A stretch of 64,000 nt of DNA, taken from IMG/VR virus record IMGVR_UViG_3300042483_000388. One strand, given 5' to 3'. Below the pieces are notes generated by a model that did no database searches, was not told where the DNA came from, and saw only the letters and a list, made by a program, of their open reading frames with translations. Numbering within the stretch: the first letter of the stretch is position 1; each line of letters starts with the position of its first letter. The position numbers were made by a program, and so were the translations under genes. The stretch comes from a virus. Taxonomy: Duplodnaviria; Caudoviricetes. Positions 1 through 20,660 of the stretch are shown piece by piece.

Positions 1-72
1 GAACATCAGGAACCAATGGAACATCAGGAACCAATGGAACATCAGGAACCAATGGAACATCAGGAACCAATG
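1..72 (+). repeat. Perfect 18-bp tandem repeat (GAACATCAGGAACCAATG) x4, coding GTSGTN
   Basis: Four identical 18-nt units are read directly at 1-72, followed by a partial fifth. Confidence 0.95.
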
Positions 73-3000
73 GAACATCGGGTTCAAGTGGTACTAACGG
101 AACGAATGGGACTAGCGGAACTTCAGGTACTTCAGGCACTAATGGTTCATCAGGTACTAATGGTTCATCAGGCACTAATGGTACGTCAGGCACTAATGGT
201 TCATCAGGCACTAATGGTACGTCAGGTACTAATGGGACAAACGGAACATCAGGAACCTCTGGTTCAAGTGGGACATCAGGAACCTCGGGTTCAAGTGGTA
301 CTAATGGTACGAGTGGGGTGAATGGTACTTCAGGTACTGACGGGACTTCTGGCACAAATGGTACGGACGGAACTAGTGGTACAAACGGAACAAGTGGAAC
401 ATCTGGAACGAATGGAACGAATGGAACGAATGGGACAAGCGGCACAGATGGAACATCAGGAACAAATGGTACAAGCGGAACTAACGGAACTAGTGGTACA
501 AACGGAACTTCAGGAACTAATGGAACTAATGGAACTAGTGGAACATCAGGGACAAACGGTACGAATGGAACATCAGGGACAAATGGTACTAGCGGTACCG
601 ACGGAACATCAGGTACAAATGGAACTAGCGGTAGTTCAGGAACAAACGGAACATCAGGAACAAATGGAACTAGCGGTACTGATGGAACGAATGGCACATC
701 GGGCACATCAGGAACTAATGGCACATCAGGAACTAATGGAACTAATGGGACAGATGGAACTAGTGGAACAAATGGGACTTCTGGAACTAATGGAACATCA
801 GGGACTAATGGAACATCAGGGACTAATGGAACTAATGGAACTAATGGAACTAATGGGTCTTCGGGTTCAAGCGGAACTAATGGGACATCTGGTACTAACG
901 GAACTTCGGGAACAGACGGAACTAGTGGAACTAATGGAACATCAGGATCAAGTGGTACAAATGGTACTAGCGGAACTAATGGGACTAGCGGAACTAATGG
1001 CACTAGCGGAACATCAGGATCAAGTGGTACGGACGGGACTTCAGGTACAAATGGAACTAGTGGAACTAACGGTACTTCGGGAACGGACGGGACTTCAGGT
1101 ACAAATGGAACTAGTGGAACTAACGGTACTTCGGGAACAGATGGGACATCAGGTACCAACGGAACATCAGGAACTAGCGGTACCGACGGAACATCAGGTA
1201 CAAATGGGACCAGCGGAACAAATGGAACTAGCGGTAGTTCAGGAACATCAGGAACAAACGGGACTTCAGGAACTAACGGAACATCAGGAACAAATGGTAC
1301 TGATGGTACATCGGGAACAAATGGGACTAGCGGTACTGATGGTACAAACGGAACTTCAGGAACAAATGGTACAAACGGAACTTCAGGGGCTAATGGATTT
1401 TCAACAGGTTTAGTTTATTATTTTAACCCTTCATCAGCATCTACAATTCCAACTTACTATGTTATGGATAGAAACATAGTGATAGGTGCCGGAACAACAT
1501 TAACTGCAACAGGGGGTGGAACACAACTAATAGGATCATTTTCAACAATTATTGGAGACCCTGGAATAACTACAATACCGTCAGGAAATTGGAACTTTGA
1601 GAATTACGTTGGTATGAGTTCCAATGGTGGTACTCCAAATTTATATGCTGATATATATATTAGAACAACAGGTGGTACTGAAACTTTAATTGGATCAAAT
1701 AGTGTATTACCCCACTCCATTACCGACGGTACGGTTGTGGAACTTTATTTATATTCGGTACCTGTATCCGCAACAACGGTAAATATTAATGATAGAATAG
1801 TCGTTAAGTTCTATGCAACCTCATTAGGTGGAAGAACAATGACTTGTTATTTTGAAGATGCGACAATTGCTCAGGTAACCACTTCATTATCACCATTTAT
1901 TGCGGGAACATCAGGTACAGATGGTACTTCAGGCACTAACGGTACTAGTGGTACAAATGGTACAAACGGAACTTCTGGGACTAATGGATCTAGCGGTACA
2001 AATGGAACTAACGGAACAAGTGGTACTAATGGAACCTCAGGAACTAATGGTACGGATGGTAGTTCGGGAACAAGCGGAACTTCAGGTTCATCAGGGACTA
2101 GTGGGACAAATGGAACAGATGGGTCTTCAGGTTCAAGCGGTAGCTCAGGCACTTCAGGATCTAATGGGTCTTCAGGAACAAGTGGTAGTAACGGAACAAA
2201 TGGAACGAATGGAACTTCAGGGACTAATGGAACAAACGGAACATCAGGGACTAATGGAACATCAGGAACAAATGGTACGAACGGGACTTCAGGTACAAAT
2301 GGAACTTCGGGAACAAATGGGACAAACGGAACATCAGGTACGAATGGTACTAGCGGTACTAGCGGAACTAACGGAACTAATGGAACTTCAGGTACAAATG
2401 GTACAAATGGTACGAGCGGGACCAACGGAACTTCAGGAACAAATGGTACAAATGGATCGTCAGGAACTAATGGAACTTCAGGTACAAACGGAACAAATGG
2501 AACTTCAGGTACTAATGGTACGAGCGGAACAAACGGAACAAGTGGATCATCACCTGCAGTACCAGGTTCAGATAATCAAGTTTTAACGTCAAACGGATCA
2601 GGAGGAATAGTTGCCGAATCTCTTTTAACATTTGATGGTACAAAATTAAGTGTATTGTATCAGGCTGGTGATGAAGGTGGGGAAATCCTATTAAACAAAC
2701 CTGTAACTAACACTACCATTTCAGGTACAGGGGTCACTTTTGACATATGGCAAGATAGAATTAGGTTTTTTGAACAAGGTGGTACTGCAAGAGGTGCGTT
2801 TCTTGACATAACCGCATGTGCTGCGGGTGTCGGTACAAATTTATTAACATCTGCCGGAACTTCAGGTACAAATGGAACTTCAGGAACGAATGGTACAAAC
2901 GGAACTTCAGGGACGAACGGTACTAATGGAACGTCGGGAACAAACGGTACGAATGGAACTAGCGGTACTAATGGAACATCAGGTACCAATGGAACAAATG

Positions 3001-4910
3001 GTACGTCGGGGACTAATGGAACATCAGGTACGAATGGGACTTCTGGAACTAGCGGAACTAATGGAACATCGGGAACTAACGGAACAAATGGTACTAGCGG
3101 AACAAACGGCACTAGCGGAACAAATGGAACTAATGGAACTTCAGGTACCAACGGCACTTCAGGAACAGATGGGACATCTGGTACTAACGGTACCAATGGA
3201 ACTTCAGGTACGGATGGAACTAGCGGAACATCAGGTACGGATGGAACTAGCGGAACATCAGGAACTAGTGGGGAAAACGGAATATCCGCAGGTCAAACAT
3301 ACTACTTCAATGAAAGTCAGAATAGTGATGTTTTAGGATATAAGGTATTATCAACAGAACCATCAACCGCATCAACACAAACAGTAACAACAAATTTATT
3401 AGGAATCCAACAAAACGTTTTAGTTTCTGATTACATAACACCACAATTAGGGTTTTCAGTTATTCCTGGTGGCGTACAAAGATTTCATTTACATTACTTA
3501 AAACCGGCAAGTAATGATGATATAGATGCATATGTTGAAATACAATTGGCAGATTCATCAGGAACAACTATAGGTCCAACAATAACTTCTAACATTTCAT
3601 TAATTGGTTGGGTTAGTGCGGTAATCCCTGTTGAAGTAAATGTAGATATAGTATTACCAACAACAACAATAGATCCAACAAATAGAATGATTGTTAGATT
3701 ATATTTGAGTAATAATGATGCAACGGCACATTCGGTGGTATATTATACTGAAGGTAATTCATATTATTCATTTGTTGTTACCTCAGTTGGCGCGATTGCC
3801 GGTACGTCAGGGACTTCAGGTACAAATGGAACCAGCGGTACTTCTGTTTCAGTTCCTGGATTAAACAATGAAGTTTTAACATCTGATGGATCAGGAGGTA
3901 TAGTTGCAGAAACTAATTTAATATTTAGTGGGTCACAATTATCCGTAACAGGTACGGTAGTAACTTATGGGTTTGCTCTTCCTAATATAGATACGTCAAC
4001 AGGATATTTAACCACATCAACACCTATGGTAACGTCTACTTCTATTGATTGGCTCAGTAGAATCGCCTATGATGTTTCTAGTACTTCAAGTATTAATTGG
4101 ACGAGTAGATATTTAACGGACTCATATCCTATTACTTCTGTTGATTGGGAAACTAAATATTTAAATGCGTATGACTTAACTACATCAGGGGCCACTCTTA
4201 GTGTTGATTGGAATTCTAGGTCATTATATTCATTTAGACCTCTTCCTATGCCAACTTCCACTCTTAGTGTGGATTGGCAGAATAGAACATTGAATGATAG
4301 TGGTGGTATTTCTTCAGTAGCATGGAGAGATCGCACCTTATACACACCTAATGGAACAACATCTTTAAATTGGACGGATGATACTTTTTTAGATTCAAAT
4401 GTTTATCAACGTGATTATAAATCTGCCGTTATACAAAACGCAGTATCAAATAACTATAACATTCCATATGGGTCATATTTAGGGGATGTAATTGAAGTAG
4501 ATGGTTCTACGACCTTTATGGATGCAGCAGTAACAGATGGAAATTTAGTTTATTTAGATACTAACGCCACTTGGTATCCTGTTAATCAAGCGGCAAGTGG
4601 GGCCACTTTCCTATTAGGTATTGCACATAACGTATATGCTCCTGGTGGAACAGGGTATGTTTTACTAGAAGGACATGTTGTAATTGATGATACATCATTC
4701 TCAGGACCAAATGTGCAAGGTGCGGATCATGGTTTACCAATATATATTAGAGATGGAACAACTCAGGGTCTTATGTCAACAGTCGTTCCTACTACGACTG
4801 GTGGACCAAATATAGTAAGAGTGTTAGGTCATTGTTACCAACAAAACTCAGGAACAGCAACACAATGGATGATGAAATTTAGACCATCAAATGATTGGAT
4901 AGAAATATAA
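3..4910 (+). CDS. Very long Gly-Thr-(Ser/Asn/Asp) repeat fibre-like virion protein with embedded globular domains (5'-truncated; true start lies upstream of the window)
   Basis: The frame of ORF 318..4910 is open from position 3 (aca tca gga acc aat gga = TSGTNG...). It has three long G-X-Y triplet blocks, two related ~170-aa non-repetitive domains starting G(F/I)SxGxxYYFN, two VPGxxNxVLTSxGSGGIVAE modules, and C-terminal S(I/V)(D/N)WxxR repeats. Confidence 0.8.
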   Translation, partial: TSGTNGTSGTNGTSGTNGTSGTNGTSGSSGTNGTNGTSGTSGTSGTNGSSGTNGSSGTNGTSGTNGSSGTNGTSGTNGTNGTSGTSGSSGTSGTSGSSGTNGTSGVNGTSGTDGTSGTNGTDGTSGTNGTSGTSGTNGTNGTNGTSGTDGTSGTNGTSGTNGTSGTNGTSGTNGTNGTSGTSGTNGTNGTSGTNGTSGTDGTSGTNGTSGSSGTNGTSGTNGTSGTDGTNGTSGTSGTNGTSGTNGTNGTDGTSGTNGTSGTNGTSGTNGTSGTNGTNGTNGTNGSSGSSGTNGTSGTNGTSGTDGTSGTNGTSGSSGTNGTSGTNGTSGTNGTSGTSGSSGTDGTSGTNGTSGTNGTSGTDGTSGTNGTSGTNGTSGTDGTSGTNGTSGTSGTDGTSGTNGTSGTNGTSGSSGTSGTNGTSGTNGTSGTNGTDGTSGTNGTSGTDGTNGTSGTNGTNGTSGANGFSTGLVYYFNPSSASTIPTYYVMDRNIVIGAGTTLTATGGGTQLIGSFSTIIGDPGITTIPSGNWNFENYVGMSSNGGTPNLYADIYIRTTGGTETLIGSNSVLPHSITDGTVVELYLYSVPVSATTVNINDRIVVKFYATSLGGRTMTCYFEDATIAQVTTSLSPFIAGTSGTDGTSGTNGTSGTNGTNGTSGTNGSSGTNGTNGTSGTNGTSGTNGTDGSSGTSGTSGSSGTSGTNGTDGSSGSSGSSGTSGSNGSSGTSGSNGTNGTNGTSGTNGTNGTSGTNGTSGTNGTNGTSGTNGTSGTNGTNGTSGTNGTSGTSGTNGTNGTSGTNGTNGTSGTNGTSGTNGTNGSSGTNGTSGTNGTNGTSGTNGTSGTNGTSGSSPAVPGSDNQVLTSNGSGGIVAESLLTFDGTKLSVLYQAGDEGGEILLNKPVTNTTISGTGVTFDIWQDRIRFFEQGGTARGAFLDITACAAGVGTNLLTSAGTSGTNGTSGTNGTNGTSGTNGTNGTSGTNGTNGTSGTNGTSGTNGTNGTSGTNGTSGTNGTSGTSGTNGTSGTNGTNGTSGTNGTSGTNGTNGTSGTNGTSGTDGTSGTNGTNGTSGTDGTSGTSGTDGTSGTSGTSGENGISAGQTYYFNESQNSDVLGYKVLSTEPSTASTQTVTTNLLGIQQNVLVSDYITPQLGFSVIPGGVQRFHLHYLKPASNDDIDAYVEIQLADSSGTTIGPTITSNISLIGWVSAVIPVEVNVDIVLPTTTIDPTNRMIVRLYLSNNDATAHSVVYYTEGNSYYSFVVTSVGAIAGTSGTSGTNGTSGTSVSVPGLNNEVLTSDGSGGIVAETNLIFSGSQLSVTGTVVTYGFALPNIDTSTGYLTTSTPMVTSTSIDWLSRIAYDVSSTSSINWTSRYLTDSYPITSVDWETKYLNAYDLTTSGATLSVDWNSRSLYSFRPLPMPTSTLSVDWQNRTLNDSGGISSVAWRDRTLYTPNGTTSLNWTDDTFLDSNVYQRDYKSAVIQNAVSNNYNIPYGSYLGDVIEVDGSTTFMDAAVTDGNLVYLDTNATWYPVNQAASGATFLLGIAHNVYAPGGTGYVLLEGHVVIDDTSFSGPNVQGADHGLPIYIRDGTTQGLMSTVVPTTTGGPNIVRVLGHCYQQNSGTATQWMMKFRPSNDWIEI
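1029..1136 (+). repeat. Perfect 54-bp tandem duplication inside the Gly-Thr repeat coding region
   Basis: ACGGACGGGACTTCAGGTACAAATGGAACTAGTGGAACTAACGGTACTTCGGGA occurs at 1029-1082 and 1083-1136. Confidence 0.9.
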
Positions 4911-4911
4911 T

Positions 4912-5265
4912 ATGCCACCCCCATCAAGCAAAATATCAGGAATACCAGTAACATCCATAATTAATATGAAGAGTGTTAATGTAACATCTATTGTTTCAAT
5001 AGGTGGAGTATCTACATCAAATATTCCTGGATGGCCAAGTGGTAGTGGGTGCGAAACACTTATTTTAGGTTATGCTTCTGGTCCACCCCCTACACAGGCA
5101 TGTAGAAATAGAACAAATGAATACCAATTTGACTCTACTAATAGTATTTTATATGGTGTTGGAGAACCTTGCGGTGGCATACCAGCCCCTAACGGCTTTT
5201 ATTCTGATGGTAGGTCAATTTACACTTGGTTTGACGGAATATGGGGATTTGGGGGACCTTGTTAA
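4912..5265 (+). CDS. Small Gly/Pro/Cys-containing hypothetical protein, probably fibre- or virion-associated
   Basis: 117-aa ORF starting 1 nt after the fibre gene stop; N-terminal KISGIPVTSI..SIGGVS repeats and a C-terminal PAPNGFYSDG..W motif. Confidence 0.6.
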   Translation: MPPPSSKISGIPVTSIINMKSVNVTSIVSIGGVSTSNIPGWPSGSGCETLILGYASGPPPTQACRNRTNEYQFDSTNSILYGVGEPCGGIPAPNGFYSDGRSIYTWFDGIWGFGGPC

Positions 5266-5271
5266 TTTATA

Positions 5272-8196
5272 TTATCTGTTATCTATATAGATGATTACTT
5301 CACTATAGTATTCTATAAAATGATCATTCCATAGATCCCATTTAATATCTACACCATCTACGGAGAAAACTTGTATGTTATCAAATTGTGGAAAGATATT
5401 ATCTCTAAACCATCTGAACTTACATTTATGAAAACTATCATCATCTCTCATATGAAATTCCGTTACAATTTTTGGAATTGTTTTTAAAAACTCAATATTA
5501 CTTTGTTGGAACACATCGTATTCACCACCTTCACAATCACACTTTAAGAAATCTATTTTATCAATTCCGTTTTCATCTAAAAATTCTTTGAATGTAAATG
5601 TTGGAACACTCTCACTAACATTATCCCAAGTGATATGAATTTTCTTTTTATCTGTGATTGCCCCTTGAATAATTTTTACATTATCTTGACCAACATTTTT
5701 ATGAAGTATACCAACTTGGTATGATAATGGTTCCACAACATAACATTGTTTTGGATTCTTTGGTAAGATTTTATATGTGAACGGACCTAAGGACGCACCT
5801 AAATCAACAACAACATCACCTTCTTCAACTTCAAAATGTCTTTCATATGTATTATCTTCAAATATCTCTTTAATTGCAGCATCAACATACCAACCACTTT
5901 TTTTACCCCAGTCAAATTCAACCTCATCAAAATTTTCTTCCGTTACCCCTTCATTATTAATAATTCTATTTATTTGTTTAATTACCATATCAGAACTTAT
6001 TCGATTTGTACATTCAAACATTCGATCGGTATTTTTATGTAAAGGACACCAATTCCAGTCGCCAGCATCTAATCTTTCTGAATTAAAACATCCGTGACAA
6101 ACACTTTCATTAATAACTCTATATGTGTCTAAAGTTGTTTCTGCCCATTTCTCACTAAACCCTGAAATCAAAACAATAGGTAATTTACAAGCCCAAGCCA
6201 ACCAAGATAAACCAGACCCTAAACCAATAAAAAACTCACAACTTGATAGGTCATTAATAACTTCTTGTAGGTTTCCTCCTTTATAAATTGTTACGCCTTC
6301 AGGATAATGGTTACCCATATAGCCATCACCTTCTTTAGAATAGACCATGCATTCATATCCCAAATTATTAAGATGATCTATAACCGCTTGCCAAGCGTCA
6401 GGATTATTCCAATACTTTGCCTGTGCCGTAGAATGAAAACCAATACCCACTTTTTTCTTTTTAGGTGTGTTAGGTAATTTTAATAGTGGTCTAACTTCTT
6501 CATAATCTAAACCTAATATATCCGTTGCCGTTTTTTGTAATGGCATTTTTTTAAAATCAAATGGGTGTTTGTTTGCGTCAAATTTACCATCTTCATTATA
6601 AAACCAACCTAAATTATATTGTGCGTGTATGTTTGGTATTAATTCGCCAGGTTCAACAAACTCAATTTCAGGATACTGATCTTTAAACAAACTATTAAGG
6701 AATGTCGATACTATCGGTTTGCAACCATGTTTTTTTCTAAATACCTCACAATAAGGAACCCAAGCCATTGTATCACCTAATGATTTTGATCCGAATGAAA
6801 TATATACTCTCTTATCTTTTAGATCTAATGTCTCATCATAAATTACTTCACCATTTTCTTCAACTGTTGTTCTCCATTTAATGAAATATTCTTTATTTAA
6901 TTTAACCCAACTATTAATTGACAATTCATTTTGATATGATATTTCATTTTTATCATCATAATATTTAATATTCAATTTGTTTTCTGTGGTTCCTTGTATT
7001 TCAAAATAAGGTTGGGTAACATAATGTCTAACAAAGGTATAATCTTTGGTTAAAGGTTTGTTTTGGGTAATGTTTATATTTGTAACTGCGTTATAAAAAT
7101 TCAATAAATCTTCACCAAATGTATCATCAGGTAATATTTTATAAACGTCCTTATTTTCAATAAGTTCAACCAATTGTTTTGATATGTTTTTAACATCACC
7201 TTCTATTGGTGTTATATATCCGTCAAACATACCCATGTATTGTGGTAAATCTCTTGCAAGGATTTTCATTCCATAGTTGATTGATTCTCTAACAACCAAC
7301 GGATTACATTCCCAAGTTGAGTTAAACATTAAAACATCGCAAGCCGTCATGAATTTCTCAACGTCAGATCGTTCCCCCCATACTTTAACATTAGAAGGAA
7401 GGTCTTTCATAATAGGACCCCAATAGTCTTCAAAGTTTGGAGCTTGGTTCCCAATAAAATGAAATTCAATATCTGAGTTTGATTCAATTAATTCTTTTGC
7501 AACCTCAACACCTTCACCTTGATTTTTACCACTTGTCCATAACCCAACATTAAGTACGTGAGTTTTAAACATATCCAAACCAAGTTCATTTCTTACTTTA
7601 ATTTTTTCAATAAGTGGTACTTGATTAAAATCACCATAGATTTCATTCTCCTCTAAAATTTTAGTTACCTTATTCTCAATTGGGTATAACGATAAAAACT
7701 TAATTGGTGTTTCATTTAAAAACGTTTCCTTTAAATGATAAGGGGTAACAAAACAATATGCCTCAGGATTGAATTTTTTATGTGTTTGCGGATTAAACCA
7801 AACATTATGACAAGTCTCAACCATTTTCCAAGTCCTATCATTTGAATAAAGTTGATTTAACAATGGTAGCGGAATTTTATTAAAACTTTCAAACCCTTCA
7901 ACCATCTCTTCTGAATGGACAATATCAATATGATTGTTTTTAATAATATCAATTAACTCATATTTTCTTTTTGTGTTACTTGTATCCCCTAAACTAAAAA
8001 AATGACCTTCACCCAATATATCAATTATTTTATCTCGTTGAACAACATATGTATTACTAAACTGAGAATACTCAACCAAAAAGATTTCAATTTGGTCTTT
8101 GAATTTTTGAAGTTCTTGAATTCTTTTTAATACGAATTGGGGTTGTCCTCCAGTTGAAAGATGAGGTGTAAGATATAATAGTTTAATTTTTTTCAT
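5272..8196 (-). CDS. Tri-domain enzyme: GT4-like glycosyltransferase + TibC/AAH-type autotransporter O-heptosyltransferase + FkbM-family methyltransferase
   Basis: N-terminal GT-B motifs (PHLSTGGQPQ; GERSDVEKFMTACDVLMFNSTWECNPLVVRES). Middle domain with TibC-like motifs (DETLDLKDKRVYISF..SLGD..WVPY; QAKYWNN; FFIGLGSGLSWLAWA..P.VLISGFS; CHGC..WCP.HKNTDR.FECT). C-terminal VVDLGASLG and IDFLKCDCEGGE. Start moved from 8214 to the MKKIK ATG at 8196. Confidence 0.85.
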   Translation of the reverse strand: MKKIKLLYLTPHLSTGGQPQFVLKRIQELQKFKDQIEIFLVEYSQFSNTYVVQRDKIIDILGEGHFFSLGDTSNTKRKYELIDIIKNNHIDIVHSEEMVEGFESFNKIPLPLLNQLYSNDRTWKMVETCHNVWFNPQTHKKFNPEAYCFVTPYHLKETFLNETPIKFLSLYPIENKVTKILEENEIYGDFNQVPLIEKIKVRNELGLDMFKTHVLNVGLWTSGKNQGEGVEVAKELIESNSDIEFHFIGNQAPNFEDYWGPIMKDLPSNVKVWGERSDVEKFMTACDVLMFNSTWECNPLVVRESINYGMKILARDLPQYMGMFDGYITPIEGDVKNISKQLVELIENKDVYKILPDDTFGEDLLNFYNAVTNINITQNKPLTKDYTFVRHYVTQPYFEIQGTTENKLNIKYYDDKNEISYQNELSINSWVKLNKEYFIKWRTTVEENGEVIYDETLDLKDKRVYISFGSKSLGDTMAWVPYCEVFRKKHGCKPIVSTFLNSLFKDQYPEIEFVEPGELIPNIHAQYNLGWFYNEDGKFDANKHPFDFKKMPLQKTATDILGLDYEEVRPLLKLPNTPKKKKVGIGFHSTAQAKYWNNPDAWQAVIDHLNNLGYECMVYSKEGDGYMGNHYPEGVTIYKGGNLQEVINDLSSCEFFIGLGSGLSWLAWACKLPIVLISGFSEKWAETTLDTYRVINESVCHGCFNSERLDAGDWNWCPLHKNTDRMFECTNRISSDMVIKQINRIINNEGVTEENFDEVEFDWGKKSGWYVDAAIKEIFEDNTYERHFEVEEGDVVVDLGASLGPFTYKILPKNPKQCYVVEPLSYQVGILHKNVGQDNVKIIQGAITDKKKIHITWDNVSESVPTFTFKEFLDENGIDKIDFLKCDCEGGEYDVFQQSNIEFLKTIPKIVTEFHMRDDDSFHKCKFRWFRDNIFPQFDNIQVFSVDGVDIKWDLWNDHFIEYYSEVIIYIDNR

Positions 8197-8247
8197 ACTA
8201 TAAAAATAAAACATACATTTTAATTGTGAAGTTCATATCATTATAGA

Positions 8248-9195
8248 ATGAAAGATGTTTGTGTTGATGTGTTAGGATGTAGATCGTTAGGGGATACCTT
8301 AGCCGTTACACCAACTTTAAGAAAACTTTATAATTCTTACGGTAAAAAAATATCTGTCGCAACTCATCACCCCGAAATTTTTAAAAACAATCCTTACGTA
8401 GATAATATTTTTAATGAAATTACAGACGACATTAAAAATGATTATGAAGTATTTGAATCCTTTAATATTGGATACCACCCAAACGGTGTTTGTTATAAAC
8501 ATAACGCAATGGATATTAGACAATTTCATGCGGTTAATTTAGGGTTTATGTTGACCAGAGATGAAATGTCAATGGACTATTTTCCTGATGAGGTAGAATT
8601 AATTGAGGGGTTACCTGAAAAATATGTTTTAATTCACCCCGTTCAAAATTGGAATTCAAGAACATGGGATGAAAAAAAATGGCAAATGTTAACAAAACTC
8701 TTAAATGAAAGAGGTATTGCCGTTATTTCTGTTGGAAAAGATTCATCAGAACTTGGTGGTTCAAATGTGGATAAACCCGTTTTTAATTTTAATATTGATA
8801 TTGGTTTGAATTTAATGAACCAAACAACCTTATCTCAAACATGGTGGCTAATTAATAGTGCAATGTGTTTCATTACTATGGATTCAGGATTACTTCATTT
8901 AGCAGGAACAACAGACTCAGAAATAATCCAACTTGGAAGTTCAATACATCCTCAATTTAGAGCACCATATAGAAAAAATAATCAAGGTCATAAATACCAT
9001 TATGTTCTTGGTGGTTGTGGTTTACATTGTGCATCAGATATTAAATACGGAGTTAAAGAATGGAAATCAATACAAGGTATACCATCACTCGTTAATTGTT
9101 TAGAAAGAAAAGAAACATTTGAATGTCACCCCAACCCAATTATTATTTATAATAAAGTTTTGGAAATATTAGATTTAGAATATTTATGTAGATAA
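8248..9195 (+). CDS. GT9-family (heptosyltransferase-like) glycosyltransferase
   Basis: SLGDTLAVTPTLRKL, HPEIFKNNPYVD, LIHPVQNWNSRTW and FITMDSGLLHLAGTT are GT9 motifs; Cys-rich C-terminus. Confidence 0.8.
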   Translation: MKDVCVDVLGCRSLGDTLAVTPTLRKLYNSYGKKISVATHHPEIFKNNPYVDNIFNEITDDIKNDYEVFESFNIGYHPNGVCYKHNAMDIRQFHAVNLGFMLTRDEMSMDYFPDEVELIEGLPEKYVLIHPVQNWNSRTWDEKKWQMLTKLLNERGIAVISVGKDSSELGGSNVDKPVFNFNIDIGLNLMNQTTLSQTWWLINSAMCFITMDSGLLHLAGTTDSEIIQLGSSIHPQFRAPYRKNNQGHKYHYVLGGCGLHCASDIKYGVKEWKSIQGIPSLVNCLERKETFECHPNPIIIYNKVLEILDLEYLCR

Positions 9196-9210
9196 TCACA
9201 TTTTAATTAC

Positions 9211-9510
9211 ATGGCAAACCAAATTCAAATAAATTCAATATCTGGAACTTCACCATTTGATATCTATGTATGTGATGTAACCATATCGTATTGTTTTTTT
9301 GTTTCAGGAATCACCACAACACCATATACGTTTAATGTTCCTCCACCTTTAGAGTCTATAACACCAATTATTTTAAAAATTATAGATGCTAATGATTGTG
9401 AAAAAATATTCTTACTATCTTGTGGGGAAATATACGGAAAAGAATTTGAAGGTTTTGAAGTATTTTTATTTCAAGACTCATCAATTTTTTTATTCGAAGG
9501 TCCTCCTTAA
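9211..9510 (+). CDS. Hypothetical protein (99 aa)
   Basis: Clean ORF between two glycosyltransferase genes; no recognisable motif. Confidence 0.6.
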   Translation: MANQIQINSISGTSPFDIYVCDVTISYCFFVSGITTTPYTFNVPPPLESITPIILKIIDANDCEKIFLLSCGEIYGKEFEGFEVFLFQDSSIFLFEGPP

Positions 9511-9565
9511 ACTATTAATATTCATATTTTTTTCTTTTCTATTATTATTATGGAAATAACCAAAT

Positions 9566-10810
9566 ATGAATACAATATTTATACAAATCGCCTCCTATCG
9601 TGATCCCCAACTTAGTTTAACAATCTCAGATTGCATTAAGAACTCTAAATACCCCAAAAATTTGGTATTTGGTATTTGTAATCAATATCACCCTGACGAT
9701 GAATTTAATATTGATGAATATCAGAATGACAAAAGATTTAGAATTGAAAATGTTTTATATTCAGATTCTAAAGGGGCTTGTTGGGCTCGTAACTTATTAC
9801 AACAAAGATATAGTGGAGAAACTTACACATTACAAATAGATTCTCATATGAGATTTTCTCCCGATTGGGACATTGAGATGATTAAAATGGTTAAACAACT
9901 TCAAAAGAAAGGACATAAAAAACCTTTATTAACGGGTTATGTTTCATCATTTGATCCCGAAAATGATCCACAGGGAAGAGTAAATGAACCATGGAGAATG
10001 TCTTTTGATAGATTTACACCTGAAGGTGTTGTGTTCTTTTTACCTGAGGTTATCCCTGGATGGAAAAAATTAAAAGAACCTATCCCTTCCAGATTCTATT
10101 CCGCACATTTTTGTTTTACATTGGGGCAATTTGTCAATGAAGTCCAACACGACAAAGATTATTATTTTCACGGAGAAGAAATTTCTATTGGCGTAAGATC
10201 CTTCACATATGGGTATGATTTATTTCATCCTCACAAAGTTTTAATTTGGCACGAATATACTCGAAAAAACAGAACAAAAAGTTGGGATGACGATAAAGAT
10301 TGGCATAAGAAAAACACAGCTTGTCATATAAAGAACAGACAACTTCTTGGTGTTGATGGAGAAGTTTATGATGGAGACTACTCACAATACTTTGGTAATG
10401 AAAGAACCATTAGAGATTACGAAAGATATTCCGGAATTTTATTTTCTAAAAGAGCTGTTCAACAAGATACTTTAGATAAGAAATACCCACCCAACGATTA
10501 CCCATATTCGTCCGAAACAGAATGGATTAATTCTTTTGCCACAATATTTAAACATTGTATAGACATAAATTTAAATAGTGTTCCAGAAACAGATTATGAT
10601 TTTTGGGTTGTTGCCTTCCATAACGCAAAAGATGAAACAATATATAGACAAGATGCTGACGCAAACGAAATTTTAAGAATAAAAAATGATCCCGATGGAT
10701 ATGGAAAAATATGGAGAGAGTTTAATGCAACCGAAATACCAAAATATTGGGTGGTATGGCCACACTCCATATCTAAAGACTGGTGTGAAAGAATAGTAGG
10801 TAATTTATGA
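9566..10810 (+). CDS. GT60-like GlcNAc transferase (Skp1-hydroxyproline GlcNAc-transferase family)
   Basis: IFIQIASYRD, GACWARN, LQIDSHMRF (DxH metal motif), FHGEEISIGVRSFTYGYD and WHEY match the family signature as I recall it. Confidence 0.8.
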   Translation: MNTIFIQIASYRDPQLSLTISDCIKNSKYPKNLVFGICNQYHPDDEFNIDEYQNDKRFRIENVLYSDSKGACWARNLLQQRYSGETYTLQIDSHMRFSPDWDIEMIKMVKQLQKKGHKKPLLTGYVSSFDPENDPQGRVNEPWRMSFDRFTPEGVVFFLPEVIPGWKKLKEPIPSRFYSAHFCFTLGQFVNEVQHDKDYYFHGEEISIGVRSFTYGYDLFHPHKVLIWHEYTRKNRTKSWDDDKDWHKKNTACHIKNRQLLGVDGEVYDGDYSQYFGNERTIRDYERYSGILFSKRAVQQDTLDKKYPPNDYPYSSETEWINSFATIFKHCIDINLNSVPETDYDFWVVAFHNAKDETIYRQDADANEILRIKNDPDGYGKIWREFNATEIPKYWVVWPHSISKDWCERIVGNL

Positions 10811-12474
10811 TAACATTAGTAACGGGTTTATGGGACATAGGTAGAGGTGACCTTAGTGAAGGTTGGTCAAGATCGTACCAACATTATCTTAATAAGTTTG
10901 AGGACTTACTTAAGGTAGAGAACAATTTAATCATCTTTGGTGATGAGGAATTAGAAAAGTTTGTTAAAGAGAGACGACAAGACCACAACACCCAATTTAT
11001 TGTTAGAGACTTAACTTGGTTTAAAAATAATGAATTTTATAATCAAATACAATCAATAAGGACAAACCCAAAATGGTATAATCTTGCGGGGTGGTTAACG
11101 GACTCAACTCAAGCAAAATTGGAAATGTATAATCCATTGGTTATGTCAAAAATGTTTATCCTTCACGACGCTTTGCTCTTGGATAAGTTTGTCTCAGAAA
11201 AACTATATTGGATTGATGCTGGATTATCAAATACTGTTAATTTAGGTTATTTCACAAAAGACAATGTATTACCAAATATCGATAATCTTTTTGATAAGTT
11301 CACGTTTATTTGTTTTCCATATCAAGCCAACACAGAGATACACGGATTTGATATTAAACAAATGGATAAATACACTAGAGATAGAGTTGATAAAGTTTGT
11401 CGTGGAGGTTTCTTTGGTGGACCAATTGAGGACATAAGACAAATGAATACCTTGTATTATAATTTAATTAAAGATACATTATCAAAAGGTTTAATGGGAA
11501 CAGAAGAAAGTTTATTCTCAATTCTATTATATAACAACCCAACCTTAATTGATTATGTTGAAATAAATGGTGACGGATTATTGTATAAGTTTTTTGAAGA
11601 TGTTAAAAACAATGATGTAAAAATCAAAACAATTTCAAGACCGAACGAAGTTATTAAGAAAACAAATGGTGGTGTTGGTTTATATGTTATAACATTTAAC
11701 AGCCCAAAACAATTTGAAACCTTAATTAAAAGTATGTTAGATTATGATCCGGACTTTATTAATAAGACAAAGAAGTTTTTATTGGATAACTCCACAGACC
11801 TATCAACAACTCCGAGATATAAAGAATTGTGTGAAGAGTATAACTTTGAACATATTAAGAAAGATAATATAGGTATTACTGGTGGTAGAGTGTTTGTTGC
11901 CGAACATTTTGATGAAACTGATTTGGACTTTTATTTTTTCTACGAAGACGACATGCTATTTTATTCAAAACCAAACTCAAAATGTAAGAACGGATTTAGC
12001 AGAAATTGTGATAAATTATATGACAAAGCTCTTCATATTATGAAGAAAGAGGAATTAGATTTTCTCAAGTTAAACTTTACGGAATTTTTTGGTTCGCACG
12101 AAAAACAGTGGTCGTGGTATAACGTGAGCAATGAATTTAGAAAAGAACATTGGCCGTTTAATCAAAACTTGCCGGTGCAAGGTCAAGACCCAAACTCACC
12201 AAATTTAGAATTTAAAAACATTAAATCACATAATGGGTTATCATATGCGACTGGTGAAATCTTTTTAAGCAATTGGCCGATCGTGTTAAATAGAGACGGC
12301 AATTACAAATGTTATTTAGAAACAAAATTTGCCCATCCTCACGAACAAACGGTGATGAGTCAATGTTATCAAGAAACCGTTAAGGGTAGAGTTAAGTCGG
12401 CAGTTTTATTACTTACACCAACAGAACACAACCGTTTCGATTTTTATGAGGCACATTTGAGAAAAGAATGTTAA
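10807..12474 (+). CDS. HtrL/YibB(WlaTC)-family glycosyltransferase fused to a GT2-like domain
   Basis: N-terminal ITLVTGLWDIGR, YNPLVMSKMF, YWIDAG, GGFFGG and GTEESLF. C-terminal LYVITFNSP, LLDNSTD and FYEDDM. ATGA overlap with the upstream gene. Confidence 0.7.
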   Translation: MITLVTGLWDIGRGDLSEGWSRSYQHYLNKFEDLLKVENNLIIFGDEELEKFVKERRQDHNTQFIVRDLTWFKNNEFYNQIQSIRTNPKWYNLAGWLTDSTQAKLEMYNPLVMSKMFILHDALLLDKFVSEKLYWIDAGLSNTVNLGYFTKDNVLPNIDNLFDKFTFICFPYQANTEIHGFDIKQMDKYTRDRVDKVCRGGFFGGPIEDIRQMNTLYYNLIKDTLSKGLMGTEESLFSILLYNNPTLIDYVEINGDGLLYKFFEDVKNNDVKIKTISRPNEVIKKTNGGVGLYVITFNSPKQFETLIKSMLDYDPDFINKTKKFLLDNSTDLSTTPRYKELCEEYNFEHIKKDNIGITGGRVFVAEHFDETDLDFYFFYEDDMLFYSKPNSKCKNGFSRNCDKLYDKALHIMKKEELDFLKLNFTEFFGSHEKQWSWYNVSNEFRKEHWPFNQNLPVQGQDPNSPNLEFKNIKSHNGLSYATGEIFLSNWPIVLNRDGNYKCYLETKFAHPHEQTVMSQCYQETVKGRVKSAVLLLTPTEHNRFDFYEAHLRKEC

Positions 12475-12502
12475 ACCCCAGTATTTATTGTTAAACTAAT
12501 TG

Positions 12503-13555
12503 ATGGAATGGTTTATTAAGAAAGGAGCGACGCTTCCTACATTAAAATTAAATATATTTAAAGACGGTAGAAGCGATTATAATAGATCTATGAAAGATCT
12601 AAATCAAGATGATATATTCTTTTCTATGGTTAATACCGAAACAGATATCCCAAGAATAACATCAAGACCGGCAGGTGTTATGGAAAAACCAAACATTGAC
12701 CCAACTTTAGAACCGGATTACTACGTTTACTATCAGTTCACACCTTTTGATACCAAAGTTGTTGGCAGATATAAAGCACAATTTTTAATTAGAAACCAAA
12801 CTGGTGTTTTGGTTTTACCATTAAATGATGAACTATATATAAATGTTACGGATAGTTTCATTATTGACGACTTACCATATGTTAGTTGTTATGTGGTTGA
12901 CTTTCCTTGTTGTGTTGGTTCAGGAGGTGTTAATCCAGGACCAGGTCCAGGTCCTTTCCCAACAACAACGACCACAACAATAATACCATATACAACCACT
13001 TCAACAACAAGTATACCATATACAACCACTTCAACAACTTTAGGTCCTGAACCAACAGCATATACAGAATGGGTTATATCGTTTGGGACACCATCTTCAA
13101 CAAATGCGTGCTCTGAGTCGGGCGAATATGTTACCGCATACACACCTGTAATGTCTGCATTAACAATAGGTCAAACCCTTTGGGCGACACCAGAATTCAA
13201 TACATACGCTTTTGGGACTAATGGTTCTTGGTTTAAAATTCTAAAAAGAAATGGATTGTCTTATTCACCAAATACTGTTATATATGTTGGTCAATATAGT
13301 TTACTATTCGGTAATTACACTCAAGTAATTTATTCACATGAGTGTGGAACTTCATTTCCTTGTAAATGTTTTACATATACTAAAACACAAAATAATCTGT
13401 TTAATTCGTTATATGTTAATTGCAATGGTAATATTGTAGGTATAACTTTACCTTTTAATGGATCTCAAACTTTCTGTGCGGCCTTTACACAACCGTATGA
13501 TTATATATCTGTAACGGGCGGAAATAACAACTGTGTTGGTGGTATTTGTCCTTAA
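12503..13555 (+). CDS. Putative BppU-like (baseplate upper/adaptor) structural protein with Thr-rich linker and Cys-rich C-terminal domain
   Basis: The N-terminal ~135 aa are paralogous to 13594..14025 (FIxxxATLPxLKL; IFFSMVNxETxIPxI; YYVYYxFT; VGRYxxQF). They are followed by PGPGPGP and TTTTT/PYTTTSTT repeats. The BppU assignment is from fold-level resemblance only. Confidence 0.5.
   Translation: MEWFIKKGATLPTLKLNIFKDGRSDYNRSMKDLNQDDIFFSMVNTETDIPRITSRPAGVMEKPNIDPTLEPDYYVYYQFTPFDTKVVGRYKAQFLIRNQTGVLVLPLNDELYINVTDSFIIDDLPYVSCYVVDFPCCVGSGGVNPGPGPGPFPTTTTTTIIPYTTTSTTSIPYTTTSTTLGPEPTAYTEWVISFGTPSSTNACSESGEYVTAYTPVMSALTIGQTLWATPEFNTYAFGTNGSWFKILKRNGLSYSPNTVIYVGQYSLLFGNYTQVIYSHECGTSFPCKCFTYTKTQNNLFNSLYVNCNGNIVGITLPFNGSQTFCAAFTQPYDYISVTGGNNNCVGGICP
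12983..13038 (+). repeat. 26-bp direct repeat with 30-nt period, coding IPYTTTSTT x2
   Basis: ATACCATATACAACCACTTCAACAAC at 12983-13008 and 13013-13038. Confidence 0.9.
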
Positions 13556-13593
13556 CTAAAATCACAACTAAAGTATTTATAAATAAAGTATTG

Positions 13594-14025
13594 ATGGAAT
13601 TTTTCATAGGACAAAACGCAACTCTCCCCCTTTTAAAGTTACAGGTCGTTAAAGATGGTAACAACGACTATGACGATATGATGCAGTTTATTGAGAGATC
13701 TACAATATTTTTCTCAATGGTTAACATAGAAACAGGAATACCAAAGATAATGACTAAATCGGCCGGATTTGTCGAAAAACTTGATATGAACCCAAATGCA
13801 AGTCCAGAATATTATGTTTATTATAGATTTACAAAAAATGATACAAGTAAGGTGGGAAGATATGAAGGTCAGTTTTTATTTAGAAATGACACAGGAACAT
13901 TGGTATTACCGATTAGAGAACAATTATTTATTAATATAAGTGAAAGTTATTTGTCAGACGATATAGAACATAATAATTGTTATACCTTAGAGTTCCCTTG
14001 TTGTATTCCACCCCCAATTCTATAA
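13594..14025 (+). CDS. Putative BppU-like structural protein, paralog of 12503..13555
   Basis: Clear similarity to the upstream ORF, including the ending C(Y)xxxFPCC. Start placed at ATG 13594, downstream of the TATTTAT motif. Confidence 0.55.
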   Translation: MEFFIGQNATLPLLKLQVVKDGNNDYDDMMQFIERSTIFFSMVNIETGIPKIMTKSAGFVEKLDMNPNASPEYYVYYRFTKNDTSKVGRYEGQFLFRNDTGTLVLPIREQLFINISESYLSDDIEHNNCYTLEFPCCIPPPIL

Positions 14026-18449: not shown

Positions 18450-20660
18450 CTATTGACAGATAACCTTACCCTTTAAGGTTGGTGGTACTTGTAGTTCAAT
18501 TGGTTCTAAAATGTCTTTATCAACAAATTTATACGCATTTATTTTTGTGTATTTGGGATCTATTCTAAACCTTATGGATAATCTTTTTTCGTCACAACCT
18601 CTTTGACCTTTATTAGACCAATAAAGTTCTATGAATTCTGTAGGTATTAAAATATTGTTTTCATAAAAAATCCCCGACATTTTACTTTTTACCTTTTGTA
18701 AAAAATTTTCAGACAATTGATTTTTTTCTAACCATATAAAGATTCTTTCTATTAACTTATTATATAATTCAATATATGCCGGTTTTTGATTAAGTATTGA
18801 ACTCTCCTTAAAAATTGAAAAGAATTCAGATAAATAACTATCAATAAATGGGTCCATTTTTTTAACCTCAAAAAAAGAACCTTTAGGATAAATAACATTT
18901 CCTTCTTCATCTTTAAAGTCTGACTTACTTTCTAAATCTGCCTTTATGTAATGTGACCCACTTTTAAATGAATTTGATAAACAATTAGTTATCCTAAAAA
19001 AATGGTAGTTTATTGTTTCTTGACCCGATTGAATTTTAACTAATGTATCAAATAATTTTTCTTTTGCGTCATCAGAACAAGCGTAATTTAATTGCAATCT
19101 TGTTGATTTTTTATTGAAGAAATCCCCAACAAATCTATTTTCGTATTTTTGATGTTCCAAGTATCTTGCGTTACGCAAAAGAGAATCTAAATTTTCTGGT
19201 GCTATGGAAGTATTTTTTTGTTTTTTTAAAACTCTAAAAGTTTCTGTTTCATTAAAATTTTTATCTTTTATAAAATCAGAAATTAATTCTAAAAAGTTTA
19301 TAGTTTTTTCTTGGTTTTGTAATGAAAGATTTATAATTTGAGGGAATGTCCCAACAATCTTCTTACTAAAAAAATTATCTAACATTAGTATGGAATGTTC
19401 TAATCTTTGAATAAGATTTTGATCTGTAAGTGTGTCTCTAAAAGCTTTAAGTTTACAAAACGGAGAGTCGTTAATTTTTTTTAATTCGGTATATTCACAC
19501 AAATAGGTTATTTTCGATTGTTGTCTTAATGCAATCTCATTTATCTTAACTATTCTAGATTCTTTTAATGGTTTGTTTTTTGTTCTTAACACATAAAGTT
19601 GGTTAACAAATTCCCAATTAACACTATCCCAAAACTTTTTAATATATTCATCTCTTTTGTTTTGATATTTTAAATAGTAAGCGTGTTCCCAAACATCAAG
19701 ACCAAGAAGTGGATATCCACCACCTTTAACTATATTCATTAATGGATTGTCCTGATTTGGTGTGGACATAATTTTTAACTCATTATTTTTTGATAAATAT
19801 AACCAAGCCCATCCAGAACCAAAACGTTCTTTTGCTGCTTCATTAAACTCATCCTTCATTTTTTTTATGTTTCCAAAATCCAATGTAATTTTTTTTAGAA
19901 TATCCCCTTTAGGAAGTTGTTTCTTTGGTGAGAGCATTTTCCAAAACAATGCGTGATTAAAAGCACCACCCGCATTATTTCTAACTTTGTCATCAAACTT
20001 ACTAATTGTTTTAATTATTTCTTCTAACTCTATATCACCATCTTTGTTTTTCAAAGCGTCATTTAATTTTTTAACATAACCCTTATAGTGTTTGTTATAG
20101 TGAATGTCCATAGTTTTGGAGTCTATGAACTTACTTAATGACGAATAAGAATAAGGTAATTTTTCAATACCGATTTTTTTCATTTCAAGAATTAAGTTTT
20201 CCTTAACCCCACCTTTTTCTATTAATAAAAGTTGTTCATTAATAATTCCCAACCTTTTTTTAATTCCTTTATCCTCAAACATCATATCTCGGATTTCGGG
20301 AAATTTCTTTTCAAACATTTTAATTAATTGACCAGCAAATGCGTTTGCTTCATCTTCATTTTTACCTCCAATATCTGGACCATGTTCTCTGTTTAATATT
20401 GTTAATTGGTATTCGTGAACCCACTCGTGAGCTAAAGTTCTTAATATATCACGATTAAGTCGTCCTTTTGATAGTATTTTTAATGTTGAATCCATTGTCC
20501 TACTTCCTGTGGACATTTCACTATCTCTAACCCCTAAAAAATTAATTTTTAAATCATTCCTTAATGGGTATTTTGTTTGTAAGAATGCGATAAATTTCTT
20601 GGTAAGAACTTTATCTTCCTTGGTCATATCGCATTTTATATGTTTGATCGAAACTTTCAT
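18450..20660 (-). CDS. Fusion: IrrE/ImmA-like HExxH metallopeptidase + Fe/Mn superoxide dismutase + unknown C-terminal domain
   Basis: LAHEWVHE...EDEANAFAG (zincin/M78-like). SOD motifs LPYSYSSL, IHYNKHY, NHALFW, FGSGWAWL, TPNQDNP and DVWEHAYY, with all four metal ligands present. Confidence 0.85.
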   Translation of the reverse strand: MKVSIKHIKCDMTKEDKVLTKKFIAFLQTKYPLRNDLKINFLGVRDSEMSTGSRTMDSTLKILSKGRLNRDILRTLAHEWVHEYQLTILNREHGPDIGGKNEDEANAFAGQLIKMFEKKFPEIRDMMFEDKGIKKRLGIINEQLLLIEKGGVKENLILEMKKIGIEKLPYSYSSLSKFIDSKTMDIHYNKHYKGYVKKLNDALKNKDGDIELEEIIKTISKFDDKVRNNAGGAFNHALFWKMLSPKKQLPKGDILKKITLDFGNIKKMKDEFNEAAKERFGSGWAWLYLSKNNELKIMSTPNQDNPLMNIVKGGGYPLLGLDVWEHAYYLKYQNKRDEYIKKFWDSVNWEFVNQLYVLRTKNKPLKESRIVKINEIALRQQSKITYLCEYTELKKINDSPFCKLKAFRDTLTDQNLIQRLEHSILMLDNFFSKKIVGTFPQIINLSLQNQEKTINFLELISDFIKDKNFNETETFRVLKKQKNTSIAPENLDSLLRNARYLEHQKYENRFVGDFFNKKSTRLQLNYACSDDAKEKLFDTLVKIQSGQETINYHFFRITNCLSNSFKSGSHYIKADLESKSDFKDEEGNVIYPKGSFFEVKKMDPFIDSYLSEFFSIFKESSILNQKPAYIELYNKLIERIFIWLEKNQLSENFLQKVKSKMSGIFYENNILIPTEFIELYWSNKGQRGCDEKRLSIRFRIDPKYTKINAYKFVDKDILEPIELQVPPTLKGKVICQ

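Follow-up and report, generated by a model that had tools for sequence, protein, structure and literature searches.

A candidate phage-encoded protein O-glycosylation locus beside a collagen-like tail fiber gene in an uncultured jumbo phage

The Escherichia coli enzyme TibC modifies Ser, not Thr, is active on synthetic peptides, and has one mapped site in the autotransporter TibA, AVS(322)GTN (PMC4358343). In Clostridioides difficile, sgtA sits directly upstream of the collagen-like gene bclA3, and its product glycosylates Thr residues in the BclA3 repeats (PMC7157674). A GT60-family enzyme of Trypanosoma cruzi transfers alpha-linked N-acetylglucosamine (GlcNAc) onto mucin Thr and uses the acceptor peptide KPPTTTTTTTTKPP (PMC3769586). 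In phages, glycosyltransferases (GTs) encoded by mycobacteriophages glycosylate the phages' own structural proteins (Freeman et al. 2023, PMID 37329881, as cited in PMC12619734), and virions of Xanthomonas phage XacN1 contain at least two Schiff-positive proteins, which Yoshikawa et al. attributed to ORF328, a GT9-family gene, and ORF334 (PMC5852040). Here, we describe a locus in IMGVR_UViG_3300042483_000388, a 64,000-nt stretch of viral DNA (the window, whose numbering is used for all coordinates below), in which genes related to TibC and to the GT60 enzymes are found beside a gene for a giant collagen-like tail fiber. We consider it probable, though far from certain, that the phage uses this locus to O-glycosylate its own virion proteins in the cytoplasm, with two initiating enzymes that act on two classes of acceptor.

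The window appeared to come from a low-GC (~32%), contractile-tailed jumbo phage of freshwater type. A phage origin was borne out by genes for a tail sheath, a T4 gp19-type tail tube, a baseplate wedge, and a family-B DNA polymerase, and the window further encoded a DnaB-like helicase and a ribonucleotide reductase. Over its first 400 bases, the window was identical to a metagenomic contig of 278,830 bp. A megablast search with the locus yielded no match among deposited phages, and the nearest isolates were XacN1 and its relatives, whose GT60 proteins were 42-44% identical to that of the window. More than 6,000 metagenomic homologs were found for each of two locus proteins, with no informative name among the matches listed. 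Five near-complete relatives were screened for the absence or presence of enzyme classes, and a 292-kb relative that was 99% complete (G001) served for a genome-wide map in place of the window's own genome. The fiber, the GT genes, and the candidate GT60 acceptor were located as follows.

3-4910, plus strand: collagen-like tail fiber gene, 3' 95% (PF01391, Gly-X-Y triplets, tail-fiber PHROG matches)
9-1403, 1905-2552, 2856-3287, and 3801-3845, plus strand: collagen runs of the fiber
1404-1904, 2553-2855, and 3288-3800, plus strand: non-collagen domains of the fiber
3846-4907, plus strand: C-terminal domain of the fiber, 354 aa
5272-8214, minus strand: 980-aa three-enzyme fusion with GT4 (about 7015-8214), TibC/Aah-like (about 5947-6969), and FkbM methyltransferase (about 5425-5847) domains
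8248-9195, plus strand: 315-aa GT9-family glycosyltransferase (PF01075, 56 bits versus a cut-off of 22)
9566-10810, plus strand: 414-aa GT60-family glycosyltransferase (PF11397, phrog_24687, D-S-H motif)
10807-12474, plus strand: 555-aa two-domain protein with an HtrL/YibB-like GT-A domain (residues 2-256) and a probable GT2-like GT-A domain (about residues 285-555)
12503-13555, plus strand: 350-aa poly-Thr protein (351 aa from the alternative start at 12500), candidate GT60 acceptor

In total, the locus contained four GT genes with six GT domains and one methyltransferase. A previous sequence-only reading of the window had arrived at the same counts and had placed the GT genes directly after the fiber; the first of them is in fact on the minus strand, convergent with the fiber gene.

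The repeat protein had the features of a collagen-like (Gly-X-Y) tail fiber. Its match to the Pfam Collagen family (PF01391) reached 366.6 bits versus a cut-off of 27.2 (E 3e-112), and its PHROG matches were tail-fiber families, specifically collagen-like tail fibers. The open reading frame (ORF) at 3-4910 was open at the 5' end of the window and encoded 1,635 aa there, which agreed with the earlier description of a protein of more than 1,600 aa made of GTS, GTN, and GTD triplets, a description that did not name the collagen period. The 278,830-bp contig supplied the full gene, which starts 262 nt upstream of the window, encodes 1,723 aa, and begins with a non-repeat stretch of 52 aa. Within the window, the 280 strict Gly-X-Y triplets fell into four runs of 155, 72, 48, and 5. 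The non-collagen domains between the runs formed two pairs that were similar within each pair, and no known-family match was found for these domains or for the C-terminal domain. The most common triplets were GTS (118), GTN (115), GSS (21), and GTD (19). Position X was Thr or Ser (Thr in 252 of 280 triplets), and position Y was Ser (141), Asn (120), or Asp (19). Pro was present in none of the 280 triplets, and the fiber thus lacked the Pro- or hydroxyproline-rich X and Y positions by which collagens stabilize their helix. The dipeptide SG occurred 149 times, and the motif SGTN occurred 84 times.

The length and composition of the fiber gene varied. The fiber was 1,723, 1,750, or 1,762 aa long on three contigs (L088:4828-9999, L089:3758-9010, and L091:481-5769) despite an identical downstream 117-aa protein, and fibers in relatives had up to 3,395 aa and 904 uninterrupted triplets. 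Because fiber length varies among contigs and relatives, the number of repeats evolves quickly. The GC content of the fiber gene was 41-44%, compared to about 32% for the rest of the window.

The fiber also contained 120 N-G-[ST] sequons (128 when all N-x-S/T sequons were counted), and thus the roughly one hundred noted in the sequence-only reading were present. However, the significance given to them did not hold up. A G-T-N triplet followed by G-T or G-S creates a sequon, which makes sequon density a by-product of the triplet period, and no STT3 or GT41 N-glycosyltransferase was found in the five near-complete relatives. For both reasons the sequons were given no weight, and N-glycosylation of the sequons was rejected.

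In the case of the 980-aa fusion, residues 416-751 passed the NCBIfam equivalog model for Aah/TibC protein O-heptosyltransferases (TIGR04414, 283.1 bits versus a cut-off of 200) and matched the TibC structure in PDB entry 4RAP with an E value of 7e-69. Residue roles were taken from the TibC structure paper (PMC4358343), and conservation was scored over 80 phage homologs. D481, T596, K600, and W671 were invariant in all 80; they correspond to TibC Asp-110, the catalytic base, Thr-226 and Lys-230, which bind the beta-phosphate, and Trp-305, which contacts heptose O4 (PMC4358343). Invariant in the 80 homologs, too, were the iron-finger residues C706, C709, C723, and C735 (TibC Cys-339, Cys-342, Cys-358, and Cys-370), which mark a putative iron site. 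The stereoselectivity residue of TibC, Pro-300, was Gly in the window protein and Gly, Ser, or Ala across the phage homologs. The FkbM domain passed the cut-offs of TIGR01444 (57.7 versus 37.7 bits) and of its Pfam family (42.8 versus 22.7 bits), and its role may be sugar O-methylation.

Two relatives showed variations of this gene. In G001, the open frame of the fusion (175863-179497) was 1,497 aa long, and the FkbM match was reduced to a 29-aa remnant, which suggested that the C-terminal module of the fusion is exchangeable. In IMGVR_UViG_3300027728_001610, a provirus according to IMG/VR, two TibC-like genes (76% and 71% identity) were located about 70 kb apart.

Relatives of the fusion in IMG/VR numbered 324. 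TibC-like genes were grouped into 36 lineages by clustering at 90% TibC-domain identity, and a lineage was scored as positive when a Gly-X-Y ORF of at least 30 triplets was found within the available flanks. Such an ORF was found beside the TibC-like gene in 24 of the 36 lineages, and several of the negative lineages had truncated flanks. The arrangement differed by lineage (convergent and adjacent, same strand and upstream, or same strand and 0.1-5 kb downstream), as did the triplet mix, although GTS was common to all of the TibC-linked collagens. Because both the arrangement and the triplet mix varied, the linkage was more than frozen synteny. The G001 genome contained only one collagen-like ORF in 292 kb, and this ORF was 1.8 kb from the fusion; the same concentration of the collagen ORF near the fusion was observed in other near-complete relatives.

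The association was also observed in the reverse direction. IMG/VR was scanned for the GTS/GTN repeat pattern alone, and 69 distinct contigs were examined. A TibC-like gene was present on 32 of them, namely 20 that were already in the TibC set and 12 of the 49 new ones, compared to a background of a few hundred TibC-like genes among 2.9 million contigs. The TibC-like domains on the 12 new contigs, most of which were 5-40% fragments, were 35-76% identical, and in 8 of the 12 the gene was no more than 10 kb from the repeat match. Relative to the background, the association between TibC-like genes and collagen ORFs was strong, as a figure uncorrected for phylogeny.

The assignment of the 414-aa protein to GT60 in the sequence-only reading was confirmed. 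The protein was a clear member of PF11397 (220 bits versus a cut-off of 21, E 8e-65, with the best stretch spanning profile positions 95-346 of 352), matched phrog_24687 with an E value of 2e-157, and was 44% identical to XacN1 ORF334; searches of NCBIfam and of PDB sequences yielded no match. Residues D92-S93-H94, which we take to be the catalytic, metal-binding D-x-H motif of the GT-A fold in the GT27 and GT60 families, were invariant in six sequences with identities down to 41%. The protein also carried a conserved, phage-specific C-terminal extension of about 120 aa.

GT60 genes were rarer than TibC-like genes and were present on 2 of the 49 new repeat-bearing contigs. In G001, there were six Pro/Thr (PT) tracts genome-wide; the two ORFs no farther than about 1 kb from GT60 contained four of them, and another was 3 kb from the GT9/TibC locus. 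In a second relative (G005), GT60 came directly after a second collagen-like ORF, and the gene after GT60 encoded a protein with three (TP)n linkers. In two further loci (L121 and L132), a small ORF with 18-21 GTS/GTN triplets was located directly upstream of GT60, and L132 had a (TP)n ORF there as well. It was not the giant fiber that GT60 tracked but small collagen-like ORFs and proteins with poly-Thr/(TP)n linkers, and therefore two acceptor classes are likely. The sequence-only reading had made its case depend on co-occurrence of the GTs with repeat fibers; the TibC-like genes bore this out in both directions, whereas GT60 followed the linkers and the small collagen ORFs.

In the 350-aa protein, a mucin-like poly-Thr/Pro linker (residues 146-177) joins an all-beta N-terminal domain to a Cys-rich C-terminal domain. 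The linker is the poly-Thr linker that had been noted earlier in the gene after the GT cluster. It was kept as a Thr/Pro/Ser-rich segment in all orthologs (24-27 of 30 residues), with a sequence that drifted between poly-Thr and (TP)n. A structural role for the protein is plausible; it had a weak Atlas match to a baseplate family, and its predicted model had a mean predicted local distance difference test (pLDDT) score of 43.

The linkage data bear on which virion parts would be modified. A serious alternative, although we think it quite improbable, is that the enzymes glycosylate the virion and spare the collagen repeats, with the PT-linker proteins, the non-collagen domains of the fiber, or beta-helical spike domains being modified and the Gly-X-Y rod being left bare. 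Such sparing would suit the recognition of beta-helical passengers by the BAHT enzymes, the family that includes TibC and Aah, and the GT60 linkage, which was strongest to (TP)n and poly-Thr linkers. It would also suit XacN1, which has a GT60/GT9 cluster and PT-rich tracts beside a giant protein without collagen repeats, and the TibC-like lineages that have no collagen gene nearby. However, it would not lead us to expect co-occurrence of TibC-like genes and GTS/GTN collagens in both directions, which held even in lineages that were only 35-50% identical, or a single triplet, GTS, shared by all of the TibC-linked collagens. The activity of TibC on short peptides and the S-G-T-N context of its one mapped site (PMC4358343) also argue against a bare rod, as do the small collagen-like ORFs directly upstream of GT60.

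The remaining two GT genes belong to families that are also found in other pathways. The GT9 protein had neither an iron finger nor an N-terminal barrel, and it scored below all of the NCBIfam equivalog cut-offs, including those for TibC and for lipopolysaccharide (LPS) heptosyltransferases of the WaaC/WaaF/WaaQ type (31-40 bits versus 135-569). The HtrL domain of the 555-aa protein matched PF09612 (65.5 versus 24.1 bits), its model had a pLDDT of about 85-90 in the N-terminal domain, and GT-A enzymes were matched at a probability of 1.0; the NCBIfam YibB equivalog was not reached (76 versus a cut-off of 265). The second domain is probably a GT2-like GT-A domain, for which the support is moderate: its DNSTD and EDD motifs are conserved, viral GT2 clusters in the Atlas contain look-alikes, and by fold it matched enzymes with two GT-A domains. 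A PDB sequence search with the 555-aa protein yielded no match. The protein was also considered as a counterpart of the Mimivirus collagen glucosyltransferase R699, and this was rejected because the template modeling (TM) score of about 0.2 indicated only generic GT-A similarity.

It is in these families that host-envelope remodeling finds its basis. Under this explanation, the GT cluster alters the LPS core or a surface glycan of the host (e.g., to mask receptors or block superinfection), and its adjacency to the fiber gene reflects a shared variable late region. The GT9 protein scored best against LPS heptosyltransferases, though under their cut-offs, HtrL/YibB takes its name from a gene in the LPS-core cluster of E. 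coli, and LPS and capsule pathways often include GT4 and GT2 enzymes. In addition, relatives have more GT2 genes as well as an operon for unusual sugars, and Iyer et al. 2021 interpreted the GT clusters of jumbo phages as modifiers of surface polysaccharides (PMC7824862). We nevertheless regard host-envelope remodeling as unlikely, although it is conceivable for the GT9, HtrL, GT4, and GT2 parts. The two most informative domains come from families whose characterized members act on proteins, and neither an initiating phosphoglycosyltransferase nor a Wzx flippase was found in the five near-complete relatives. If the target were the host envelope, one would not expect such genes to lie next to those for hydroxyl-rich repeat proteins again and again, specifically and in differing arrangements, and XacN1 virions contain glycoproteins.

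The 555-aa protein is also the starting point for DNA hypermodification, in which some of the GTs would glycosylate modified bases to evade restriction. The C-terminal half of the protein showed a weak match to the TET-associated GT (TAGT) family, but this match (E 0.03) was below the cut-off and not significant. The cluster abuts the family-B DNA polymerase gene, a position that hypermodification would fit, and phage DNA glycosylation by diverse GTs is established (as cited in PMC12619734). However, no hydroxymethylase was found in the five near-complete relatives, the only thymidylate-synthase-family gene in relatives (checked in G002) was a canonical thymidylate synthase equivalog and not a hydroxymethylase, and TibC-like and GT60 enzymes are not known as DNA glycosyltransferases. 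We consider DNA hypermodification highly improbable.

In the reading that we favor, the targets are the phage's own virion proteins. The domain identities, the conserved catalytic residues, and the gene linkage across lineages were direct observations, and around them we infer the acceptor sites, the sugars, and the glycan methylation. Specifically, the TibC/Aah-like domain of the fusion would transfer a sugar, from ADP-heptose or another nucleotide-sugar, onto Ser hydroxyls of the collagen-like fiber. The likely sites would be the Y-position Ser residues in the recurring S-G-T-N context, because the mapped TibA acceptor AV-S-GTN matches it. The fused GT4 domain would then extend the fiber sugar, and the FkbM domain would cap it with a methyl group. 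GT60 would transfer an N-acetylhexosamine (GlcNAc by analogy) onto Thr residues of poly-Thr/(Thr-Pro)n linkers; its acceptor in the window would be the 350-aa protein two genes downstream, and in relatives the small GTS/GTN collagen-like proteins would also be acceptors. Extension of the glycan started by GT60 would fall to the two-domain HtrL+GT2 protein and the GT9 protein.

The glycans may serve to stabilize a proline-free triple helix, to shield the fiber, or both. In Riftia, a vent worm, galactosyl-Thr stabilizes the triple helix of cuticle collagen. A bolder version of the scheme, which we put forward as a doubtful possibility, is that a BAHT-like enzyme forms a ring and, moving processively, adds a sugar to the Ser of almost all GTS triplets on a proline-free rod, which in relatives reaches about 900 triplets, with the sugars replacing hydroxyproline as helix stabilizers, and that the phage GT60, whose type is otherwise characterized only in eukaryotes, builds mucin-like linkers on accessory fiber proteins. 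The result would be a sugar-coated "bottle-brush" fiber in one of the most abundant uncultured jumbo-phage lineages.

Several observations weigh against glycosylation of the virion proteins as outlined above. The known substrate of BAHT enzymes is a beta-helix, not a triple helix, and no autotransporter (beta-helix) acceptor was found in the window, where the neighbor is a collagen-like fiber. GT9, HtrL, GT4, and GT2 are families that one typically finds in the synthesis of LPS and capsule. In six or seven TibC-like lineages, the flanks were full or long and contained no collagen or Ser/Thr-rich neighbor, and on 3 of the 12 new contigs the TibC-like gene and the repeat were 40-60 kb apart. Much of the co-occurrence is shared ancestry inside one abundant clade. 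In the TibC-anchored loci, the distance from GT60 to the nearest PT tract was no shorter than local tract density predicts, and the argument for GT60 and PT tracts therefore rests on the G001 genome-wide map and the independent loci. The XacN1 GT60/GT9 cluster adjoins a giant protein that is not collagen-like, and thus the linkage may be to fibers or baseplate proteins generally.

A further point of this kind concerns the sugar donor. TibC Arg-286 hydrogen-bonds adenine N1, and the R286A substitution abolishes or largely diminishes activity (PMC4358343). The equivalent residue in the window protein is Val-652, and it was Val, Thr, or Leu in 79 of the 80 phage homologs. Because this adenine-reading Arg is replaced, ADP-heptose is not assured as the donor; the domain appears BAHT-like in fold and chemistry, and its donor need not be ADP-heptose. 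Phage-encoded ADP-heptose synthesis was considered and gave no evidence for heptose: an SIS_2 (GmhA-like) gene was present in two of the five relatives, and in G005 it was inside a NeuB/aminotransferase/dehydratase sugar operon. That operon (L086; G005, 80-98 kb) is long and encoded on one strand, and it contains genes for a GDP-mannose-dehydratase-like protein, a DegT aminotransferase, an epimerase, NeuB, an SIS isomerase, a short-chain dehydrogenase, and a class IV aminotransferase, which suggests phage-made sugars of the nonulosonic-acid type.

Overall, the sequence-only reading was partly supported. Its family assignments and the genomic association stood, including the TibC/Aah-like assignment of the fusion, whereas heptose as the sugar is not assured and the sequons carry no weight. 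The methylated multi-sugar glycan that it proposed is still a prediction. Its statement that no such system had been characterized in a tailed phage was out of date, because virion glycosylation has been demonstrated in mycobacteriophages according to PMC12619734.

Other genes of the locus were located as follows.

4912-5265, plus strand: 117-aa ORF with no family match, between the fiber gene and the GT fusion, poorly conserved in relatives
9211-9510, plus strand: 99-aa protein without a linker, related (41-42% identity) to the (Thr-Pro)n-linker proteins found on either side of GT60 in relatives
13546-14025, plus strand: 159-aa paralog of the N-terminal domain of the 350-aa protein (52% identity over 139 aa)

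The exact 117-aa protein was present on at least 22 metagenomic contigs. The 99-aa gene occupies the position directly upstream of GT60 and encodes a homolog of the linker proteins that has lost its linker. The true start of the 159-aa paralog is probably the ATG near nt 13594. The all-beta domain of about 120 aa that the 159-aa and 350-aa proteins share is thus duplicated in tandem (12503-13555 and 13546-14025), and its copies in G001 (120985-121368 and 190132-190461) adjoin the fiber gene and the PolB gene; the domain may represent a fiber-associated adaptor family.

Elsewhere in the window, a 736-aa protein (18450-20660, minus strand) contained a complete Fe/Mn superoxide dismutase (residues 166-354) between unmatched N- and C-terminal regions; such a fusion is unusual in phages. 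Between an SNF2 helicase gene and the structural genes, a 320-aa ORF (22490-23452, plus strand) carried a NUMOD3 motif and is possibly homing-endonuclease-like. The tail sheath (25292-28645, plus strand; 1,117 aa) had recognizable sheath domains only in its last 280 or so residues, and its long N-terminal part had no assignment. Three giant ORFs on the plus strand (33098-38152, 1,684 aa; 38467-45477, 2,336 aa; and 56919-62561, 1,880 aa) had no significant Pfam match and no PHROG match, the sole Pfam match being a below-cut-off OmpA match in the 1,684-aa ORF. The 1,880-aa ORF comes after the baseplate-wedge gene, as does the 3,313-aa ORF325 of XacN1.

If the virion proteins are glycosylated as proposed, the BAHT enzymes, which are known only for modifying virulence-associated autotransporters of pathogens, would also have a natural niche in phages, one that is much larger and in which the acceptor differs in structure. 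Similarly, GT60, which has been characterized only in protists, would gain a phage branch, and the phages known to glycosylate their virions would include, besides mycobacteriophages, a jumbo-phage lineage that is very abundant in the environment. The fibers would then offer a natural test of whether O-glycans stabilize proline-free collagen helices, which would be useful for collagen-mimetic design, and they would bear on how phage fibers resist proteases and avoid recognition.

Among phages, the locus can be compared most directly to that of XacN1 (AP018399), Xoo-sp13, and the Stenotrophomonas phages CM1 and RAS14. As in the window, these phages carry a GT60 gene (44% identity), an HtrL+GT2 gene (40-43% identity), and a GT9-family gene (ORF328 in XacN1) between baseplate/giant-fiber genes and the DNA polymerase gene. 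XacN1 ORF334 is the GT60 homolog, and ORF328 and the window GT9 protein are members of one family, GT9. The XacN1 group differs in that the TibC-like fusion was not found in the regions examined and a carbamoyltransferase is present. Unlike the window fiber, the giant neighbor protein in XacN1 has short PT-rich tracts and no Gly-X-Y repeats.

The E. coli BAHT enzymes TibC and Aah (PDB 4RAP/4RB4) share with the fusion a GT-B domain with an iron finger, the catalytic residues, and the equivalog model. In tibC-tibA and aah-aidA, the GT gene is beside the gene for a long, Ser-rich, repetitive surface protein, and the window has the same arrangement with a presumed acceptor. In contrast to the E. 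coli enzymes, the phage domain sits between GT4 and FkbM domains, the neighbor is collagen-like rather than a beta-helical autotransporter, and Arg-286 and Pro-300 are replaced by Val and Gly, respectively. In the case of GT60, the polypeptide alpha-GlcNAc transferases (the T. cruzi mucin pp-alpha-GlcNAcT and the Skp1 Gnt1 of Dictyostelium and Toxoplasma) share PF11397 and the D-x-H motif with the phage protein, and the GT60 genes in the window and its relatives adjoin genes for poly-Thr/(Thr-Pro)n proteins that resemble the T. cruzi acceptor KPPTTTTTTTTKPP. The phage GT60 differs in that it is encoded by a bacterial virus, would act in the bacterial cytoplasm, and has the extra C-terminal region of about 120 aa.

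The closest parallels for the acceptor are the SgtA-BclA3 system and BclA of Bacillus anthracis, which, like the window fiber, have a Thr-rich Gly-X-Y protein in a surface filament; the repeat hydroxyls in these systems are glycosylated, and further sugars and caps are added. However, Pro occupies X and Thr occupies Y in the GPT repeats of the Firmicutes, whereas the window has Thr at X, Ser, Asn, or Asp at Y, and no Pro. In addition, SgtA is an O-GlcNAc transferase that combines GT-A and TPR domains, not a BAHT or GT60 enzyme, and the carrier is a spore, not a virion. Mimivirus is likewise a virus with collagen-like proteins and its own fiber-glycosylating enzymes (L230 and R699). The Mimivirus enzymes act on hydroxylysine, together with a lysyl hydroxylase and in the manner of animal collagen, in a eukaryotic host; the window has no such hydroxylase, and its acceptors would be Ser and Thr.

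In the mycobacteriophages, which are siphoviruses of Actinobacteria, the acceptors are the C termini of capsid and tail-tube subunits, as reported through PMC12619734. Our literature search found no paper that ties BAHT-type or GT60-type enzymes to collagen-like phage fibers. We also know of no collagen-like acceptor, BAHT enzyme, or GT60 enzyme reported for the mycobacteriophage system. Phage virion glycosylation itself is already known, and what stands out in the locus described here is the enzyme families, the size of the fiber, and the abundance of the lineage.

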